From the sequence record LC739536.1: 64,000 nt of DNA; one strand, 5' to 3'. A model generated the notes under the pieces. The model searched no databases and had not been told where the DNA came from. It worked only from the letters and a program-made list of their open reading frames with translations. Within the stretch, counting starts at the first letter, position 1; every line of letters starts with the position of its first letter. Source of the DNA: Escherichia phage phiWec187. A program made the translations under genes and the position numbers. Shown here one piece after another: positions 56,638 to 62,655 of the stretch.

Positions 56638-57189
56638 ATGCGGATTACTGATAAGTATGTGTTCTTCTTTTCAGCAAAAGATGAATTTAGCAACTGGTAT
56701 CTATCATCTTTTATTGAACCTTTAGCACCCAAGTATAATAATTCTATTACAAGTTCTGTTGAATTTACTTGTGTGGAACAATATATGATGTGGAGAAAAG
56801 CATGTTTGTTTTATGATTACAGTATTGCATCTTCTATTTTAACCGGAGATCTAAGATATACAGGAGAAAAAGAACAAGCATATTATAAGCGACTAGGCAG
56901 ATTAGTTAAAGATTATGATGAAGATACCTGGACTTCTTTACGGGAGAAGATTGTCAAACGTGGTTTGTATCTTAAATACACACAAAATGAAGATCTCAAA
57001 AATAAACTTATAGCTTACGCAGATAAGGAGTTTGTAGAGGCAAGTCCTTATGATTCTATTTATGGTATCAAAATGGGGATGTGGGATCGGGACGTGGAAA
57101 ATAAGGATTGTTGGAAAGGACAAAATCTTTTAGGAAAATGGCATACAGACCTTGCTGTTTATCTAAAAGCCCACTCTGATATTTCCTGA
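56638..57189 (+). CDS. NADAR-domain protein (YbiA-like)
   Basis: FFFS...FSNW, EQYMMWRKA, EASPYDSIYGIKMG and GQNLLGK blocks match the NADAR/YbiA pattern. Confidence 0.6.
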   Translation: MRITDKYVFFFSAKDEFSNWYLSSFIEPLAPKYNNSITSSVEFTCVEQYMMWRKACLFYDYSIASSILTGDLRYTGEKEQAYYKRLGRLVKDYDEDTWTSLREKIVKRGLYLKYTQNEDLKNKLIAYADKEFVEASPYDSIYGIKMGMWDRDVENKDCWKGQNLLGKWHTDLAVYLKAHSDIS

Positions 57190-57405
57190 TATTTTGAAAA
57201 TTTTTATTTTTATAAAAAGGGGTGTGGGTTTCATGTACGGAAATTCACCCTCTGAATAATATATTCAGAGTAAATATTATTTTGTACTCTGTTAATAAAC
57301 TATTTAATTTGTTTGTTGGATTATGATATCTGGTTTTTAAAAGGCATACTATCTCTTAACTACTATTTATAACAGAACAGTAAAATCATTTTTATAAAAA
57401 GGACA

Positions 57406-57610
57406 AAATTATTTAAAGTTTTTACAGATTTTTGGATACAAATTTTGAAAATGAAAAGTTCAAGTTTGGTCAAAATTATTTAAAGTTTTTGTATGTATTT
57501 CTATCCAGATTTTGAAAATGAAAACTTCAATTTTTTAAAAATTCCCCAGTTTATTTAAAGTTTTTTTGCCTTTTTCCGTAGAAAAATCAAAAATGAAAAG
57601 TTCAATTTCG
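57406..57610. repeat. three tandem ~65-75-bp direct repeats
   Basis: Each unit carries tatttaaagttttt then, about 20 nt later, tttgaaaatgaaaagttcaa. Confidence 0.7.
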
Positions 57611-57629
57611 TGTTTTTATAGGTGTGCGT

Positions 57630-57745
57630 ATGATAATCATTCTCATTTGTAAATGAGAATGATTATCATTTAATTATGTAAGTGATAATCATTCTCACTA
57701 AGAGAATGAGAATCATTAGCAAATGAGAATTTTTCTCATTTATAG
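57630..57745. promoter_or_regulatory. cluster of Fur-box-like palindromes
   Basis: Perfect 19-bp inverted repeat atgataatcattctcattt / aaatgagaatgattatcat (57630-57669) containing AATGATAATCATT, an exact 13-nt match to the core of the E. coli Fur box GATAATGATAATCATTATC; two more partial copies to 57745. Confidence 0.5.
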
Positions 57746-58001
57746 AATAACGCGCAGGGGTGGTGTTTGTCTCGCGCTCCCGTGTCCCCTCGCCATACAA
57801 TAAGAATAGCATAACTAACAACAAAAGCAAGCAATTATTTTTATCTTTACATTTCTTTACAAATTTATTTTAGACGAGCTACCGGCGATCAACCTTCCAA
57901 CCAGTGCCCCCTGGTATGTTAGCCCCGCCTTTACGCCGTGGGGTGGCGTTTCCTCTTCTGTATGTAAAACAGTATAAGCCCGATCCCTGGGCTTGTCAAG
58001 A

Positions 58002-58268
58002 TTATTTTTTGTTTTCTTGCCAGGATAGGACACCTAACCAAAAATACATGTCGCCCCGCGCCCCTGGCGGGATCTTGCTTTCCCCGCCGCCACTGCAAGC
58101 CCATAGATAACCATTAGCGAACGGATCAAAGTGATCTATTTCTTCCACCTTATGATCGCCCAGGTTGAGAACGGTTTCAACCTTTAAGCCCGTTGCGCTT
58201 GCTACCTGGTGCGCCGTGCCGCCTTGCCAGCCTAATGAGTGCATGAGGTGTAGAGTAGTATTTGTCAT
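58002..58268 (-). CDS. hypothetical small protein encoded in a GC-rich island
   Basis: 88-aa ORF with its own promoter and 5' hairpin-RBS architecture (gcgcc-ctggtt-ggcgc, then caaagaaaggg...ATG); GC content far above the flanks. Confidence 0.45.
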   Translation of the reverse strand: MTNTTLHLMHSLGWQGGTAHQVASATGLKVETVLNLGDHKVEEIDHFDPFANGYLWACSGGGESKIPPGARGDMYFWLGVLSWQENKK

Positions 58269-58315
58269 GGTATCGCCCTTTCTTTGATGTGCGCCCTGGT
58301 TGGCGCGGTAGAAAG

Positions 58316-58344
58316 ATAATAGCCCTTTCCTTTATAGATAGCAA
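58316..58344 (-). promoter_or_regulatory. sigma70-like promoter for the 58268 gene
   Basis: Minus-strand TTGCTA, 17-nt spacer, TATTAT. Confidence 0.45.
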
Positions 58345-58380
58345 GCAAAAAAAAGAAATGAAAAAAGATTAAAAAAGGGG

Positions 58381-58409
58381 TTGACGTTCCTCACCTGGTA
58401 GCGTATTAT
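58381..58409 (+). promoter_or_regulatory. sigma70-like promoter (divergent partner)
   Basis: TTGACG, 17-nt spacer, TATTAT. Confidence 0.5.
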
Positions 58410-58536
58410 TCATCTTGTCGAGGGGGGCGAGGCACAACGACAATAAACAAAAGGAGGGCGCAATGTAGGACGGGCAAAGGTGAGGATCTCCATAATCCAC
58501 CGTCACAATAACATTACTTATAAAAGGTTGATAACG

Positions 58537-58632
58537 ATGATCAAGAAAGAAAACAGCTTGACGGTTGGAACGATTAACGCTATCATTCTTGCCGTTCCAT
58601 TTTGGATTGTAGTTGCGGTTATTATTTTTTAA
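58537..58632 (+). CDS. small hydrophobic peptide (31 aa)
   Basis: MIKKENSLTVGTINAIILAVPFWIVVAVIIF; below the ORF-track length cutoff; weak RBS. Confidence 0.3.
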   Translation: MIKKENSLTVGTINAIILAVPFWIVVAVIIF

Positions 58633-58640
58633 AAATATTC

Positions 58641-58668
58641 TTGACAACGTTTTTTAATCTGATAAGAT
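58641..58668 (+). promoter_or_regulatory. early promoter
   Basis: TTGACA, 16-nt spacer, TAAGAT; followed by the 58681-58696 hairpin. Confidence 0.6.
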
Positions 58669-58720
58669 GTATCACATAGGGCGGCAATAGTGCCGCTCAT
58701 AACAGAAGAGAGAAATAATC

Positions 58721-58993
58721 ATGGCATCATATAGCGCATCAATGATCGTAATGGGCATCACTGGTAAACCTATGCGCGGTGGCGGATCTTTCGCTAACAT
58801 CAATATTGATGGGCGTTTATCCCTGGATGCAGCGATCACCGTGGCACGGGAAACATTTAAAAAAGAATGCAATTTCAATAAACAAGATTATCTCGGTTTC
58901 GCTATTGAAAAAACCGCGCGCTTTGTGGATTATAAAAGCCCGAAAATGATCGACACTACACTAAAAGCGCAAGATGTAGCGTTTTTGCTTTAA
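58721..58993 (+). CDS. early protein, hypothetical
   Basis: 90-aa ORF with promoter, 5' stem-loop and RBS. Confidence 0.5.
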   Translation: MASYSASMIVMGITGKPMRGGGSFANINIDGRLSLDAAITVARETFKKECNFNKQDYLGFAIEKTARFVDYKSPKMIDTTLKAQDVAFLL

Positions 58994-58996
58994 GGC

Positions 58997-59024
58997 TTGA
59001 CACTGAAAAATAATTTAGTAATAT
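58997..59024 (+). promoter_or_regulatory. early promoter
   Basis: TTGACA, 16-nt spacer, TAATAT; hairpin ggcgggg...cccgcc at 59036-59057. Confidence 0.6.
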
Positions 59025-59079
59025 ATACCACGTAAGGCGGGGAAATGATTTCCCGCCAAATCAAAGAAAGGGTAATGCA

Positions 59080-59442
59080 ATGAGCAAGCAAATCAATACT
59101 ATCATGTTTAATCTGGTATCTTTCCGCGATGACGTGAAAAACCTTTCGCGTGATGCAGTGGATGCACGGATCGAAAGCTATCGCACACAGATCGCAACGT
59201 TACCGCTGAAACGTGATCAACATGCCGCTAATATGATGCTTGATGCTATGATTAAAAAGATGATTCAATGTGATCTTACCCTGGCTTATGAATATGCTGG
59301 CGATCTTTTTGTAACGTATAATAAGCCCGTTCCAGGTATGAGCACCACGGAAGAATTGCATGCCTTAAATCTGCGACAAGATGCATGGGATAACATGCGC
59401 CGTGTTATGGTATGGGTAGAAAGCGGTAAAATTTACGAATAA
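59080..59442 (+). CDS. early protein, hypothetical
   Basis: 120-aa ORF with promoter/hairpin/RBS. Confidence 0.5.
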   Translation: MSKQINTIMFNLVSFRDDVKNLSRDAVDARIESYRTQIATLPLKRDQHAANMMLDAMIKKMIQCDLTLAYEYAGDLFVTYNKPVPGMSTTEELHALNLRQDAWDNMRRVMVWVESGKIYE

Positions 59443-59448
59443 AAACGG

Positions 59449-59476
59449 TTGACATTGCACTAAAACCTGATAAGCT
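59449..59476 (+). promoter_or_regulatory. early promoter
   Basis: TTGACA, 16-nt spacer, TAAGCT; hairpin gcgggaa-ttg-ttcccgc at 59485-59501. Confidence 0.55.
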
Positions 59477-59520
59477 ATCTTAAAGCGGGAATTGTTCCCG
59501 CTTACATAGGATAAAACTTT

Positions 59521-59667
59521 ATGAAACAATATGTAATGAGTATTCACACCAAAAACGGCGCTACTGTTACGACTCCGGCACGGTTTGCACTTGTAAACCG
59601 CTGCAAGAGACTAAAACGAGAGCTAAAAAACAACCGTGCAACGGGCTTTAAACGCTGGGGAGGATAA
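59521..59667 (+). CDS. early small basic protein (48 aa)
   Basis: MKQYVMSIHTKNGATVTTPARFALVNRCKRLKRELKNNRATGFKRWGG; below the ORF-track cutoff. Confidence 0.4.
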   Translation: MKQYVMSIHTKNGATVTTPARFALVNRCKRLKRELKNNRATGFKRWGG

Positions 59668-59669
59668 TC

Positions 59670-59930
59670 TTGTTTTTTCTAAAAGTTTTTGATAATGTGA
59701 TCGCTTTTGAACATGCTACAACGTTCGACCTGGCGAGATACGCTATCAGGTTTAAAGATAATGTTTATCCCCGTGCTGGCGGCGGTTACACTATTTTTAA
59801 TCATCGTAACGCTCAATTAACGGATATAACTAATCCAGGCCCTGGAGTGTATCGCATAGGCTGGCTACCGTCAAAAGACGCGGCAAGCATGTTTAAGGTA
59901 TGTAAACTACTAACAGAAGAGGCGAACTAA
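59670..59930 (+). CDS. early protein, hypothetical (TTG start)
   Basis: 86-aa ORF starting at TTG 8 nt after GGGGAGG, translationally coupled to the preceding small ORF. Confidence 0.4.
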   Translation: MFFLKVFDNVIAFEHATTFDLARYAIRFKDNVYPRAGGGYTIFNHRNAQLTDITNPGPGVYRIGWLPSKDAASMFKVCKLLTEEAN

Positions 59931-59931
59931 C

Positions 59932-60486
59932 ATGGGGCGTGAATATGTGATCCAGTCCTGGGTAAAGCATGATGCTAATGATCCGCGCATAATACCAGAT
60001 GACATGATCGATCACATGGTAGGGTATAGCGGGGAGCAGATAGGAAATCGAGCGGCAAAGAGCAACGGCAACACAAAGGCGCGATCCGTTCGCCCTGGTT
60101 GGCTGGCAAATGGTAACGCTGACATTGCAAGCGCCGCAGATCCAAGCGATGACGCTAAAAATAATCCCTTATACAGCATTGATCCGGCTTTTAAGGTGTT
60201 AGAAGAATATCCCGCTAAATTAGCCGCACTAGATAAGGCATACGAAGAAAAGCGCATGGCATGGACTGTATACAACACCGCTAAAATGGTGCTAGATGCA
60301 AAATTGATTAAAGCCCAGGAGAAGATCAATAAACTTGTTGCAGTAGCGCAAGAGGAAGACCAGGACGACCAGGAGGAAGAGGAAGAAATCATGCCTACCC
60401 TGGAAGAGGAAGAGATCCAGCCATACACGCCGACAGAAGAGGAAAAAATACAAGCCTTAAAAAATTATAAAAATTGTATTGTGTAA
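59932..60486 (+). CDS. early protein with highly acidic C-terminus
   Basis: 184 aa; EEDQDDQEEEEEIMPTLEEEEIQ tail. Confidence 0.45.
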   Translation: MGREYVIQSWVKHDANDPRIIPDDMIDHMVGYSGEQIGNRAAKSNGNTKARSVRPGWLANGNADIASAADPSDDAKNNPLYSIDPAFKVLEEYPAKLAALDKAYEEKRMAWTVYNTAKMVLDAKLIKAQEKINKLVAVAQEEDQDDQEEEEEIMPTLEEEEIQPYTPTEEEKIQALKNYKNCIV

Positions 60487-60489
60487 GGC

Positions 60490-60518
60490 TTGACATATGC
60501 AAACAAGCCCCGTAATAT
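60490..60518 (+). promoter_or_regulatory. early promoter
   Basis: TTGACA, 17-nt spacer, TAATAT. Confidence 0.55.
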
Positions 60519-60567
60519 GTACCACATAGAGCGGGGCAACCCCCTCAAAGGTGAAATAAAAAATCAC

Positions 60568-60595
60568 TTGACAACTGAAATCAGTAAGCTATAAT
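60568..60595 (+). promoter_or_regulatory. early promoter with consensus elements
   Basis: TTGACA, 16-nt spacer, TATAAT (both hexamers perfect). Confidence 0.65.
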
Positions 60596-60632
60596 GCTTA
60601 TATAAATTAAAGCGTTACTAAGGAATAAAATC

Positions 60633-60998
60633 ATGGCTAAAAATATCAATGTTTCTGCTTATGCTACCCTGGCTAACACTGCTAAAATTGAACTATCCAG
60701 CATTGAAGCGGTACATATTAGCGCCCGTCGCTGGTTTCAAAAGTCTTATGGTAATACTTATTTCTCTTTGATGGTTGACGTTGAGATCGGCGGTAAACTG
60801 ATTGAAGTCGTTAACGTTCCGTTTCAATATGGTTATGGTGATCATTTTGATACCGTCGCCCTGGAAGAGTTTAGCAAGGTTATCAACCTGGAAGGTAAAG
60901 ACTTTTCAAATTATGCTTACCTTTCCCGTTTTTGCCGTGATAATGGGATCGCTGTATACAGTCATGCAAGCGATGTTAAACGTAAAAAAGATTTATAA
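60633..60998 (+). CDS. early protein, hypothetical
   Basis: 121-aa ORF downstream of tandem promoters. Confidence 0.5.
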   Translation: MAKNINVSAYATLANTAKIELSSIEAVHISARRWFQKSYGNTYFSLMVDVEIGGKLIEVVNVPFQYGYGDHFDTVALEEFSKVINLEGKDFSNYAYLSRFCRDNGIAVYSHASDVKRKKDL

Positions 60999-61004
60999 AA
61001 AGCA

Positions 61005-61032
61005 TTGACAGCACGAATAAAAAGCATATAAT
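61005..61032 (+). promoter_or_regulatory. early promoter
   Basis: TTGACA, 16-nt spacer, TATAAT; hairpin gcgggaa-tag-ttcccgc at 61046-61061. Confidence 0.65.
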
Positions 61033-61086
61033 ACTTATATCGAGAGCGGGAATAGTTCCCGCCTCACTGAAAAAGAGATTAACATC

Positions 61087-61326
61087 ATGGCTAAATCTAA
61101 AATGTTCTTAGGTCACAAAAACAAAACTCATTGGAATGTAAGCCTTTGGATCAACAACGATGAAGGTTTTTATAATCTTGCGCGTGAATTTATCGCAGCT
61201 AACACCAATAAGAATGACGCAGCGCGTGATATGATGTTATTTCTTGAAAGTATGGATCAAGATAAAACGCCAGACGGTTACAAGTTCAGTAAAACTGCAA
61301 TCCGTGCCGCTATGGTAGGAATGTAA
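61087..61326 (+). CDS. early protein, hypothetical
   Basis: 79-aa ORF with promoter/hairpin/RBS. Confidence 0.5.
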   Translation: MAKSKMFLGHKNKTHWNVSLWINNDEGFYNLAREFIAANTNKNDAARDMMLFLESMDQDKTPDGYKFSKTAIRAAMVGM

Positions 61327-61335
61327 TAAAAGCAG

Positions 61336-61363
61336 TTGACAACGTTTTTTAATCTGGTATAGT
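61336..61363 (+). promoter_or_regulatory. early promoter, near-duplicate of the one at 58641
   Basis: TTGACA, 16-nt spacer, TATAGT; first ~24 bp (ttgacaacgttttttaatctg) identical to 58641-58661; hairpin ggcgggaaa-tgg-tttcccgcc at 61375-61395. Confidence 0.6.
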
Positions 61364-61417
61364 TTATCACATAGGGCGGGAAATGGTTTCCCGCCAAATC
61401 AAAGAAAGGTTATCATT

Positions 61418-61645
61418 ATGGCTATCGTTATTGTTCGCGTATCCGGTACGGTTGGAAGCTCCCAGGTAGTAGCAGTTATCACCGAGAAGAAAGGGGATGA
61501 TCTTCACTCTTCCTTGAATAGCTGGGCGGTCGCTAACTTCGGGCAATGGTCGAGCGTTGAGTACATCGAATCCTACCAGGTGCCAACGATTAGCCTAACC
61601 GATCTGAATGTTGATCGCTTGTTGTGCCTGGATGGATTAAACTAA
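61418..61645 (+). CDS. early protein, hypothetical
   Basis: 75-aa ORF. Confidence 0.5.
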   Translation: MAIVIVRVSGTVGSSQVVAVITEKKGDDLHSSLNSWAVANFGQWSSVEYIESYQVPTISLTDLNVDRLLCLDGLN

Positions 61646-61653
61646 AAATAATA

Positions 61654-61681
61654 TTGACAAGATAACTAAAATCAGTAAAAT
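61654..61681 (+). promoter_or_regulatory. early promoter
   Basis: TTGACA, 16-nt spacer, TAAAAT; hairpin gggcggca-atag-tgccgccc at 61692-61712. Confidence 0.6.
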
Positions 61682-61732
61682 GTAATGCATAGGGCGGCAA
61701 TAGTGCCGCCCCTAGTGAGAGAGATTATCAAC

Positions 61733-61948
61733 ATGGCTAATATCCGCACCTTGTTAAAAAATGCAAAGCAAGTTTTATTTTCAGATGACGAATATTTTAA
61801 TAAAGATATTACAGGCGTGAAAAATTTAAAAGACGTGAAGGATGTTATCGGTATCCGTGGATCTTTACGTAAAGGTGACATATACGGTAACAAGGTGCAG
61901 TATAAACTGTCAAAAGATTATGATTTTACTTTGACAATTATTTCATAA
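61733..61948 (+). CDS. early protein, hypothetical
   Basis: Start at the internal ATG after the 5' hairpin; the listed longer ORF would begin inside the promoter/hairpin. Confidence 0.5.
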   Translation: MANIRTLLKNAKQVLFSDDEYFNKDITGVKNLKDVKDVIGIRGSLRKGDIYGNKVQYKLSKDYDFTLTIIS

Positions 61949-62038
61949 AACTACTTGCAAACCTGGTAAAATAAAGTAAACTATATTCATTAAGGCGGTG
62001 GAATAGCCCACCGCCTAACAAAGAGAAGAGGAAACATC

Positions 62039-62209
62039 ATGATCACTTTCGCTACCCGTGAAGCCGCTCGCAACGTTGCACGTAAAGTTAATGCCGCCAA
62101 CCTGGGCGCTACGCTTAAAGCCCCGGTAAAAGATGAATCAGGAAAATGGATCTTCCCTGGTCTGCGTCACGCTGATAAGCTGGGAACATTAACGTTAAAA
62201 AATAAATAA
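62039..62209 (+). CDS. early small protein (56 aa)
   Basis: MITFATREAARNVARKVNAANLGATLKAPVKDESGKWIFPGLRHADKLGTLTLKNK; preceded by hairpin ggcggtgg-aatagc-ccaccgcc (61994-62015) and RBS. Confidence 0.45.
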   Translation: MITFATREAARNVARKVNAANLGATLKAPVKDESGKWIFPGLRHADKLGTLTLKNK

Positions 62210-62216
62210 TATCCGC

Positions 62217-62245
62217 TTGACAGTAGCATGATTTATAAGTAAAGT
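62217..62245 (+). promoter_or_regulatory. early promoter
   Basis: TTGACA, 17-nt spacer, TAAAGT; hairpin ggcgggaaa-tgg-tttcccgcc at 62255-62275. Confidence 0.55.
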
Positions 62246-62295
62246 AACAACAACGGCGGGAAATGGTTTCCCGCCATCAATAAAGAGATAAGATT

Positions 62296-62655
62296 ATGAA
62301 ATCAGTAAAAGCAATTAAAACTTACATTGTGTCGGCTATTTCTTTTGAAGGTACTACAACAGAAAAAGAAAAGATCACCGAACTGATGCGCCGTTTTAAG
62401 TCTGAATACTGGTATACCGATAATCAAAAACGTTACAATCATAACATGACCAAGGCGATAGCCTCATGGTTACAAGGTTTACCGTCAGAAATCAATATTG
62501 CTTTTGATTATAACGAGATCGATCACTTGTTAATCGAATGGAAGTATATAAAAGAAACAAGCAAAGAAACAACCGTTACCCGTGAGCGGGAAAATTATTG
62601 GTTATATATTGCAAGCATGATCGTAACTTTGGCAAAATATCATAAAGTAGCGTAA
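62296..62655 (+). CDS. early protein, hypothetical
   Basis: 119-aa ORF. Confidence 0.5.
   Translation: MKSVKAIKTYIVSAISFEGTTTEKEKITELMRRFKSEYWYTDNQKRYNHNMTKAIASWLQGLPSEINIAFDYNEIDHLLIEWKYIKETSKETTVTRERENYWLYIASMIVTLAKYHKVA

Follow-up and report, generated by a model that had tools for sequence, protein, structure and literature searches.

In Escherichia phage phiWec187, a very strong Shine-Dalgarno (SD) sequence in a predicted 5' leader is followed by an ATG that runs directly into a TAG stop codon. We read this ATG-TAG, with a probability of about 0.5, as a decoy or vestigial ribosome-binding site (RBS) in the position of the gene start within the first rightward early-promoter cassette. 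Because half of the relatives carry ATG-CAG instead and many lack the leader, the site would be an unselected decoy or a left-over gene start.

The DNA analysed here (the window) comprises 64,000 nucleotides of record LC739536.1, and all positions refer to it. With 57800-59100 as the query, megablast matched 156 phage records; the closest (98%) were the Escherichia phages inny and Paula (Justusliebigvirus, Stephanstirmvirinae, phi92 group). The source phage is a phi92-like coliphage of Justusliebigvirus, and the equivalent locus in phi92 lies between gp224 and gp226. Records labelled as Campylobacter, Pseudomonas, Acinetobacter, Serratia or Klebsiella phages have 90-98% identity to these coliphages over the locus, and the host labels of some of these records look doubtful. 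The features of the locus are the following.

58002..58268, minus strand: divergent 88-aa gene, homologue of Phi92_gp224 (phrog_19316).
58381..58409, plus strand: sigma-70-type promoter TTGACG-N17-TATTAT with 10/12 consensus matches.
58417..58536, plus strand: predicted 5' leader, with a transcription start at about 58416-58417 as judged from the position of the -10 box.
58451..58458, plus strand: SD sequence AAGGAGGG, forming a duplex with ACCUCCUUA (-12.1 kcal/mol).
58463..58468, plus strand: ATG-TAG start-stop, an allele of a six-codon open reading frame (ORF) that spans 58463-58483 in relatives.
58469..58505, plus strand: nearly invariant 37-nt stretch after the stop, GACGGGCAAAGGTGAGGATCTCCATAATCCACCGTCA, in which 2/37 columns vary.
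58537..58632, plus strand: 31-aa hydrophobic peptide ORF MIKKENSLTVGTINAIILAVPFWIVVAVIIF with a weak SD, AAAAGG (duplex -3.6 kcal/mol).
58641..58720, plus strand: next standard cassette, TTGACA-N16-TAAGAT with a GC hairpin (58679-58698) and an SD.

The promoter is the first rightward one within a divergent promoter region. Its -35 box TTGACG (58381-58386), 17-nt spacer and -10 box TATTAT (58404-58409) are present as the initial annotation had described them, and an A-rich tract lies upstream at 58345-58377. Both boxes and a TCATCT 3' of the -10 box are conserved in relatives from Justusliebigvirus, Phapecoctavirus and Vequintavirinae. The divergent 88-aa gene has a promoter-like site of its own on the minus strand (TTGCTA-N17-TATTAT, 58344..58316). 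Its product has no Pfam or NCBIfam match, and a single-sequence AlphaFold model was unusable (pLDDT 40). The PDB match is weak and driven by repeats. A role of this gene as a regulator was rejected on these grounds.

Several further observations concern the surroundings of the locus. On the minus strand, the segment 57999..57860 opens directly past the stop codon of the 88-aa gene with a near-consensus promoter (TTGACA-N17-TATACT, 11/12 matches). Some 110 nt of GC-rich sequence come after this promoter, in which no ORF is led by an SD and the fold z is -0.7. Annotators have called differing small ORFs in the equivalents of this segment in related phages, and a small RNA or a decayed gene may lie here. 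Further to the left, 57200-57860 is very AT-rich (GC 0.19-0.27) over about 650 nt and has no convincing ORF; it contains a near-perfect palindrome of about 100 nt (57624-57728), gives only spurious microRNA-precursor matches in Rfam and is annotated as repeat_region at the equivalent place in phage muut. This region could be a replication or packaging signal. Immediately left of it lies a 183-aa NADAR-domain protein (56638-57189; PF08719, E = 3.5e-36). A host origin of the GC-rich block 57860-58540 was rejected, as there was no match among 5,426 E. coli genomes; a single exact 23-mer match was found in a Planctomycete MAG, where the flanks are unrelated.

The other elements described in the initial annotation are likewise in place. 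The SD sequence pairs strongly with the 3' end of the 16S rRNA, a spacer of four nucleotides (CGCA) leads to the ATG (58463-58465) and the TAG (58466-58468), and the hydrophobic 31-aa ORF begins after another 68 nt. This ORF is the first real gene of the predicted transcript; its annotation is membrane protein or hypothetical protein in phages inny and PaulScherrer. A promoter-like sequence within it (TTGACG-N17-TATCAT, 58558-58586, 10/12 matches) is probably due to chance. Phages phi92, PD06 and those of the cardinal type have an extra 93-aa gene, gp225, directly after the small peptide ORF (phi92 piece 2230-2640 compared with 58537-58640 of the window), and the C-terminus of the peptide in these phages reads ...SIIL versus ...VIIF.

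The sequence part of the start-stop definition of Meydan et al. (2019) asks for an AUG followed by a stop and for an SD at working distance, and both are found at 58451-58468, where the GGAGG core is 5 nt from the ATG. The duplex energy of this SD (-12.1 kcal/mol) compares with -3.6 kcal/mol for the 31-aa ORF and -4.5 to -5.0 kcal/mol for the next two genes. The leader has a minimum free energy of -17.4 kcal/mol versus -21.1 kcal/mol for shuffled sequences (z = +1.2). With a very strong SD, a 5-nt spacing, an AUG and a leader that folds no better than shuffles, ribosome capture at ATG 58463 is therefore plausible on sequence grounds. Binding of 30S subunits is to be expected where an SD of this strength is followed by an AUG in an open context, as in SD-led initiation generally. 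The literature that we searched contains no transcript, ribosome-profiling or half-life data for these phages.

The site stands at the head of a series of similar units. Between 58641 and about 62300 there are eight cassettes, each consisting of TTGACA-N16/17-TAnnnT, a GC hairpin and an SD, followed by a small gene with an ATG start; the one at 58641..58720 leads to a 90-aa gene (ATG at 58721) and has a hairpin of -14.4 kcal/mol (z = -4.7). Hairpin energies across the eight are -12.5 to -17.7 kcal/mol, compared with -7.4 kcal/mol for the first 50 nt past the -10 box of the start-stop leader, and the start-stop cassette has neither a stable hairpin nor a gene behind its start codon. In seven hairpin cassettes for which the distance between the -10 box and the ATG was measured, it is 52, 55, 44, 54, 54, 51 and 50 nt. 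ATG 58463 sits 53 nt past its -10 box, that is, within this range of 44-55 nt, and thus occupies the gene-start slot.

A direct descent of the SD and ATG-TAG from the standard box of these cassettes was rejected. An nhmmer profile built from ten cassette boxes matched all eight cassettes of the window and did not match the start-stop leader; alignments to the standard box (CACATAGGGCGG...hairpin) gave P = 0.07-0.8, and the local alignment of the best case for a degenerate copy (TAGGACGGGCAAAGGT versus TAGGGCGGGAAATGGT) was not significant. The genes behind the eight cassettes are small and of unknown function, and their gain, loss and replacement among relatives occur at cassette boundaries. 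A second apparently gene-less cassette lies at 60490-60567 (TTGACA-N17-TAATAT, a hairpin and CAAAGGTGAAATAA), with the next promoter beginning immediately at 60568; it has the 9-mer CAAAGGTGA in common with 58475-58483 of the leader.

This arrangement resembles the PeSL cassettes of T4-type phages (PMC2839356, PMC4122927), which also have an AT-rich tract and a sigma-70 promoter and, at the 3' end, an SD and a start codon, lie in clusters ahead of small ORFans and coincide with the boundaries of indels and replacements. The start-stop cassette has the sigma-70-like promoter with its AT-rich tract, the 3' SD and start codon, and a position at such boundaries: a deletion in PHB05, a replacement in ASO2A, the loss of three genes in muut and the extra gp225 in phi92. 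It differs in that it has no stable stem-loop (-7.4 kcal/mol, no profile match) and no gene, and in that the phage belongs to the Stephanstirmvirinae. The PeSL-like architecture of 58641-62300 is an occurrence outside T4-type phages, the original setting of PeSLs.

A distant relative has a gene in the corresponding slot. The Vequintavirinae phage UPEC06 has a divergent promoter region that can be recognised as the same one (80% identity), and a 61-aa gene, conserved in six phages, has its ATG 54 nt past the -10 box. The leaders of UPEC06 and of the source phage are collinear, and past TCATCT..TCGA their alignment beats 99% of shuffles (P = 0.009). By BLAST alone, homology to UPEC06 stops about 10 nt past the transcription start, and we thus regard this evidence as supportive, not strong. 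Since no relative of the same subfamily was found to have a longer ORF behind ATG 58463, we infer a lost gene from the position and this one distant relative only. The SD and ATG would then be a remnant of a real gene start, or homologous to one.

Next to the stop codon, the relatives fall into two groups. A 39-nt probe that spans the start-stop found 57 phage records, with TAG exactly in 28, CAG exactly in 16 and other CAG/CAA variants in 13, for which example sequences were read per class. These variants include AAGGCGGGTGCAATGCAG (PaulScherrer and Antha), TAGGCGGGTGCAATGCAA (PD06 and ALITA), GCGATGCAG (EF1-1) and a 1-nt insertion in the spacer (ETEC-TG). When 58466 is a C, the site reads ATG CAG/CAA GAC GGG CAA AGG TGA and encodes MQDGQR, and its TGA overlaps a GTG at 58480. 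The SD is weakened in some relatives, to -6.8 kcal/mol in the PD06 type (AGGCGGG) and to -8.2 kcal/mol in the PaulScherrer type. Retention of the juxtaposition among relatives, which we would add to the original definition as a mark of a selected element, is not seen for ATG-TAG, with TAG in 28/57 and CAG or CAA in 29/57.

TAG and CAG are each present in Justusliebigvirus as well as in Phapecoctavirus. When placed on a neighbour-joining tree calculated from the flanks, the two alleles require at least three state changes, and this number is three for either root, so that the tree favours neither TAG nor CAG as the ancestral state. Furthermore, all four haplotypes of 58466 with the T/C site 58493 exist, the fourth in a metagenome contig. 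This homoplasy implies that recurrent mutation or short-patch recombination was involved.

Other relatives lack the leader. In PHB05-type phages it is deleted and GTCGAGGGGG is joined straight to the hairpin of the next cassette, in ASO2A-type phages a standard hairpin cassette replaces it behind the same -35 box, and in muut it is absent with a jump to a gene three genes further on. Among the 60 matches listed, about 23 have the leader, and in about 27 the locus is there but the leader is not; scans of IMG/VR and metagenomes added only five further loci. Judged from these genomes, many relatives can do without the entire leader.

We compared rates of change across eleven sequences, none of which had been picked by an exact match to the leader. 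The variable columns were distributed as follows.

88-aa gene, third codon positions: 24/88.
88-aa gene, codon positions 1+2: 16/176.
Intergenic spacer: 25/112.
5' leader: 4/34.
SD/start/stop stretch 58451-58468: 6/18.
58469-58505: 2/37.

The difference between third positions and positions 1+2 (P = 0.0002) indicates that the 88-aa gene is a real coding gene and thus a usable yardstick for the neutral rate. The SD/start/stop stretch cannot be told apart from the neutral proxies (6/18 versus 49/200, P = 0.40) and more variable than the remaining leader (6/71, P = 0.013). Its variable sites are 58451 (all four bases), 58455 (A/C, weakening the SD), 58459, 58462, 58466 (T/C) and 58468 (G/A). The ATG is invariant in all leaders read; at such variability, three invariant columns are expected by chance in about 30% of cases. 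There is no detectable selection on the second codon, TAG versus CAG.

In the same comparison, the 37 nt after the stop vary less than the neutral proxies (2/37 versus 49/200, P = 0.008), which a pure relic model does not account for. The functional part of the leader might therefore be this stretch, possibly together with the 5' part, as a site for a host or phage protein or as a small RNA element, and SD-ATG-stop might be an incidental, drifting spacer. We consider this rather unlikely. The excess of variation in the SD/start/stop stretch over the remaining leader points in this direction, and so does the sharp boundary: 58469-58505 is common to two genera, and genus-specific sequence begins at the junction 58505/58506. 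There is also a weak predicted hairpin, GACGG...CCGUC, within the stretch (-9.6 kcal/mol), in which the U/C variation at 58493 turns a G-U pair into a G-C pair, and the leader has three GGA motifs within 35 nt, which may be CsrA-like. Against this reading, the hairpin is not significant (z = -0.9), and a structured leader was rejected because the whole (z = +1.2), the 3' part (z = -0.9) and the 5' part (z = -1.8) all lack a significant fold. Rfam, searched with gathering scores over the whole window and with E <= 10 over 57600-58800, has no family over the leader, and no attenuator with a leader peptide, riboswitch or member of a curated RNA family was recognised. The stretch has no second copy in the window and no coding signature, variation is too scant for covariation, and a recent module spread by recombination could also give low diversity.

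Other candidate functions of the leader were rejected. The plus strand has no terminator-like site between 58417 and 58640. The ORF from GTG 58480 shares the frame of the 31-aa ORF in Justusliebigvirus alone, the two frames being different in Phapecoctavirus, and an ORF on the minus strand has no coding signature, since codon positions 3, 2 and 1 hold 5, 5 and 1 of its 11 variable sites. An operator-like 9-nt inverted repeat (TCCTCACCT/AGGTGAGGA) is not kept in PsgM04F, PaulScherrer and EF1-1, and we thus take it to be a chance occurrence.

The initial annotation had proposed that a start-stop such as this can hold ribosomes and modulate downstream translation or mRNA stability. As a reading of the sequence this stands; as a dedicated regulator the site is called into question, with TAG in only 28/57 records, a neutral-like rate of change and an SD that is weakened in one lineage. 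A selected start-stop or mini upstream ORF (uORF), in which ribosomes held at AUG-UAG tune the translation or stability of the small-gene mRNA, seems improbable to us. TAG and CAG would then be two settings, no elongation versus six codons that end in a UGA overlapping GUG 58480. The very strong SD in an unstructured context, the ATG retained in all leaders read and the presence of the module across two genera would suit such a device, and each variable site in 58451-58468 alters SD strength, spacer or ORF length and could be tuning. In E. coli, start-stops found by retapamulin ribosome profiling (yecJ, hslR) bind ribosomes, with a shift in host-gene expression of about 16% (10.1101/520783), and upstream RBSs can repress downstream genes (PMC13285730). 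However, only half of the carriers have the juxtaposition, a whole lineage has a weakened SD and variability is indistinguishable from that of neutral sites. Beyond the junction 58505/58506, the same leader precedes the 31-aa ORF in Justusliebigvirus versus a 65-aa gene with its own GGAG SD in ZCKP1-type Phapecoctavirus, which likewise speaks against such a device. The leader is moreover missing from whole groups of relatives.

Distance also argues against this regulatory role. The upstream RBSs of Sinorhizobium meliloti (PMC13285730) are similar in that a leader carries an SD and a start codon, and they are occupied by ribosomes with no detectable product. There, occlusion involves starts that are 3-25 nt apart and coupling involves overlapping stops and starts, whereas the two starts of the phage leader are 74 nt apart and the stop lies 68 nt (TAG) or 53 nt (TGA) before the next start. 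With a stop that far upstream, direct occlusion of the RBS of the 31-aa ORF or classic coupling is unlikely. Since a downstream start is reached independently in bacteria, a start-stop at this distance need not have any obligatory effect. Start-stops in the 5' UTRs of eukaryotes and viruses (AUGUAA of Arabidopsis NIP5;1, PMC11915504; human, PMC13338717, 10.1101/2021.07.26.453809) likewise lie upstream of a main ORF and allow no elongation, but they act on scanning 40S subunits, unlike the phage case.

It is equally improbable that the motif arose by chance, as a purine run, an ATG and a TAG that are adjacent by accident, and that it neither binds ribosomes nor has a function. In first-order Markov resamples of the window, 0.51 sites of the pattern GGAGG-N3-10-ATG-stop are expected and one is found (P(>=1) = 0.36), for the AGGAGG version the expectation is 0.13 (P = 0.10), and the window holds 113 ATG-stop hexamers on both strands; neutral-like variation also agrees with this explanation. 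Thus, the bare motif is at about chance level, and its setting is not random. The window has 17 GGAGG+ATG sites; an ORF with a minimum of 63 codons follows 14 of them, and the start-stop is the sole one in an intergenic leader that opens a tiny ORF. An accident would leave unexplained the canonical gene-start distance of the ATG from a conserved promoter and the alignment with a real gene start in UPEC06, and the SD and AUG in their open context would be expected to bind 30S subunits. Less probable still is a mobile 5'-UTR module that consists of the promoter, the strong SD, the one- or six-codon ORF and the 37 nt, stands before different small early genes in phages of two genera and has a recurrent TAG/CAG toggle and SD changes as adaptive settings of ribosome parking for early-mRNA stability or translation.

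We thus return to a decoy or vestigial RBS. The region is a string of cassettes with promoter, 5' hairpin, SD and ATG, one small gene each, which are shuffled, deleted and replaced between related phages. In the start-stop cassette, the ORF behind the SD and ATG amounts to one codon, or to six (MQDGQR) in about half of the relatives, and the transcript would continue into the gene of the 31-aa membrane peptide. Host ribosomes would bind at this very strong site, which is unstructured and lies some 47 nt from the 5' end, and RF1 would end translation as soon as fMet has formed. The effect would likely be passive: a bound ribosome would occupy the region near the 5' end, and part of the ribosomes would be drawn away. 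Two points do not sit easily with a mere decoy or relic: the ATG is present in all leaders read, and the weakened SDs are still stronger than those of neighbouring genes. Both fit some retained function of the mini-ORF.

The preferred reading agrees with a suggestion made for the E. coli sites, namely that an inadvertent start may just be neutralised by the stop directly behind it (10.1101/520783). The phage site is like those of Meydan et al. in its AUG followed by a stop, in the SD-like sequence upstream and in the E. coli ribosomes that would read it; it differs in that those sites are out of frame inside genes and bound by ribosomes, whereas the phage site is in a leader, is polymorphic with a six-codon ORF and is known from sequence. 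By analogy with strong-SD stabilisers (PMC5737220), a bound ribosome may also protect the mRNA and so take over, in part, from the 5' hairpin found in the sister cassettes. These stabilisers (STAB-SD of Bacillus cryIIIA; B. subtilis hbs) share with the phage leader a strong SD near the 5' end, from which a bound ribosome can protect the mRNA. As expected for a STAB-SD-type stabiliser, the strong SD in the 5' UTR of the phage serves no protein-coding ORF (one or six codons), and it stands where sister cassettes carry a 5' hairpin. The known stabilisers, however, were described in Gram-positive bacteria, where they act against the 5' exonuclease RNase J1, an enzyme absent from E. coli.

The ATG-TAG is best filed as a further example of a leader start-stop or mini-uORF that was made and kept by cassette shuffling, and not as a conserved device. 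If any part of the leader hides something new, it would be the near-constant 37 nt that follow the stop. A start-stop that looks like a textbook case can be an unselected by-product of cassette shuffling, which calls for caution in motif-based scans. If the site binds ribosomes, its TAG/CAG and strong/weak-SD variants would constitute a natural allelic series among near-identical coliphages, with which a start-stop could be compared to a very short uORF in a bacterial 5' UTR.
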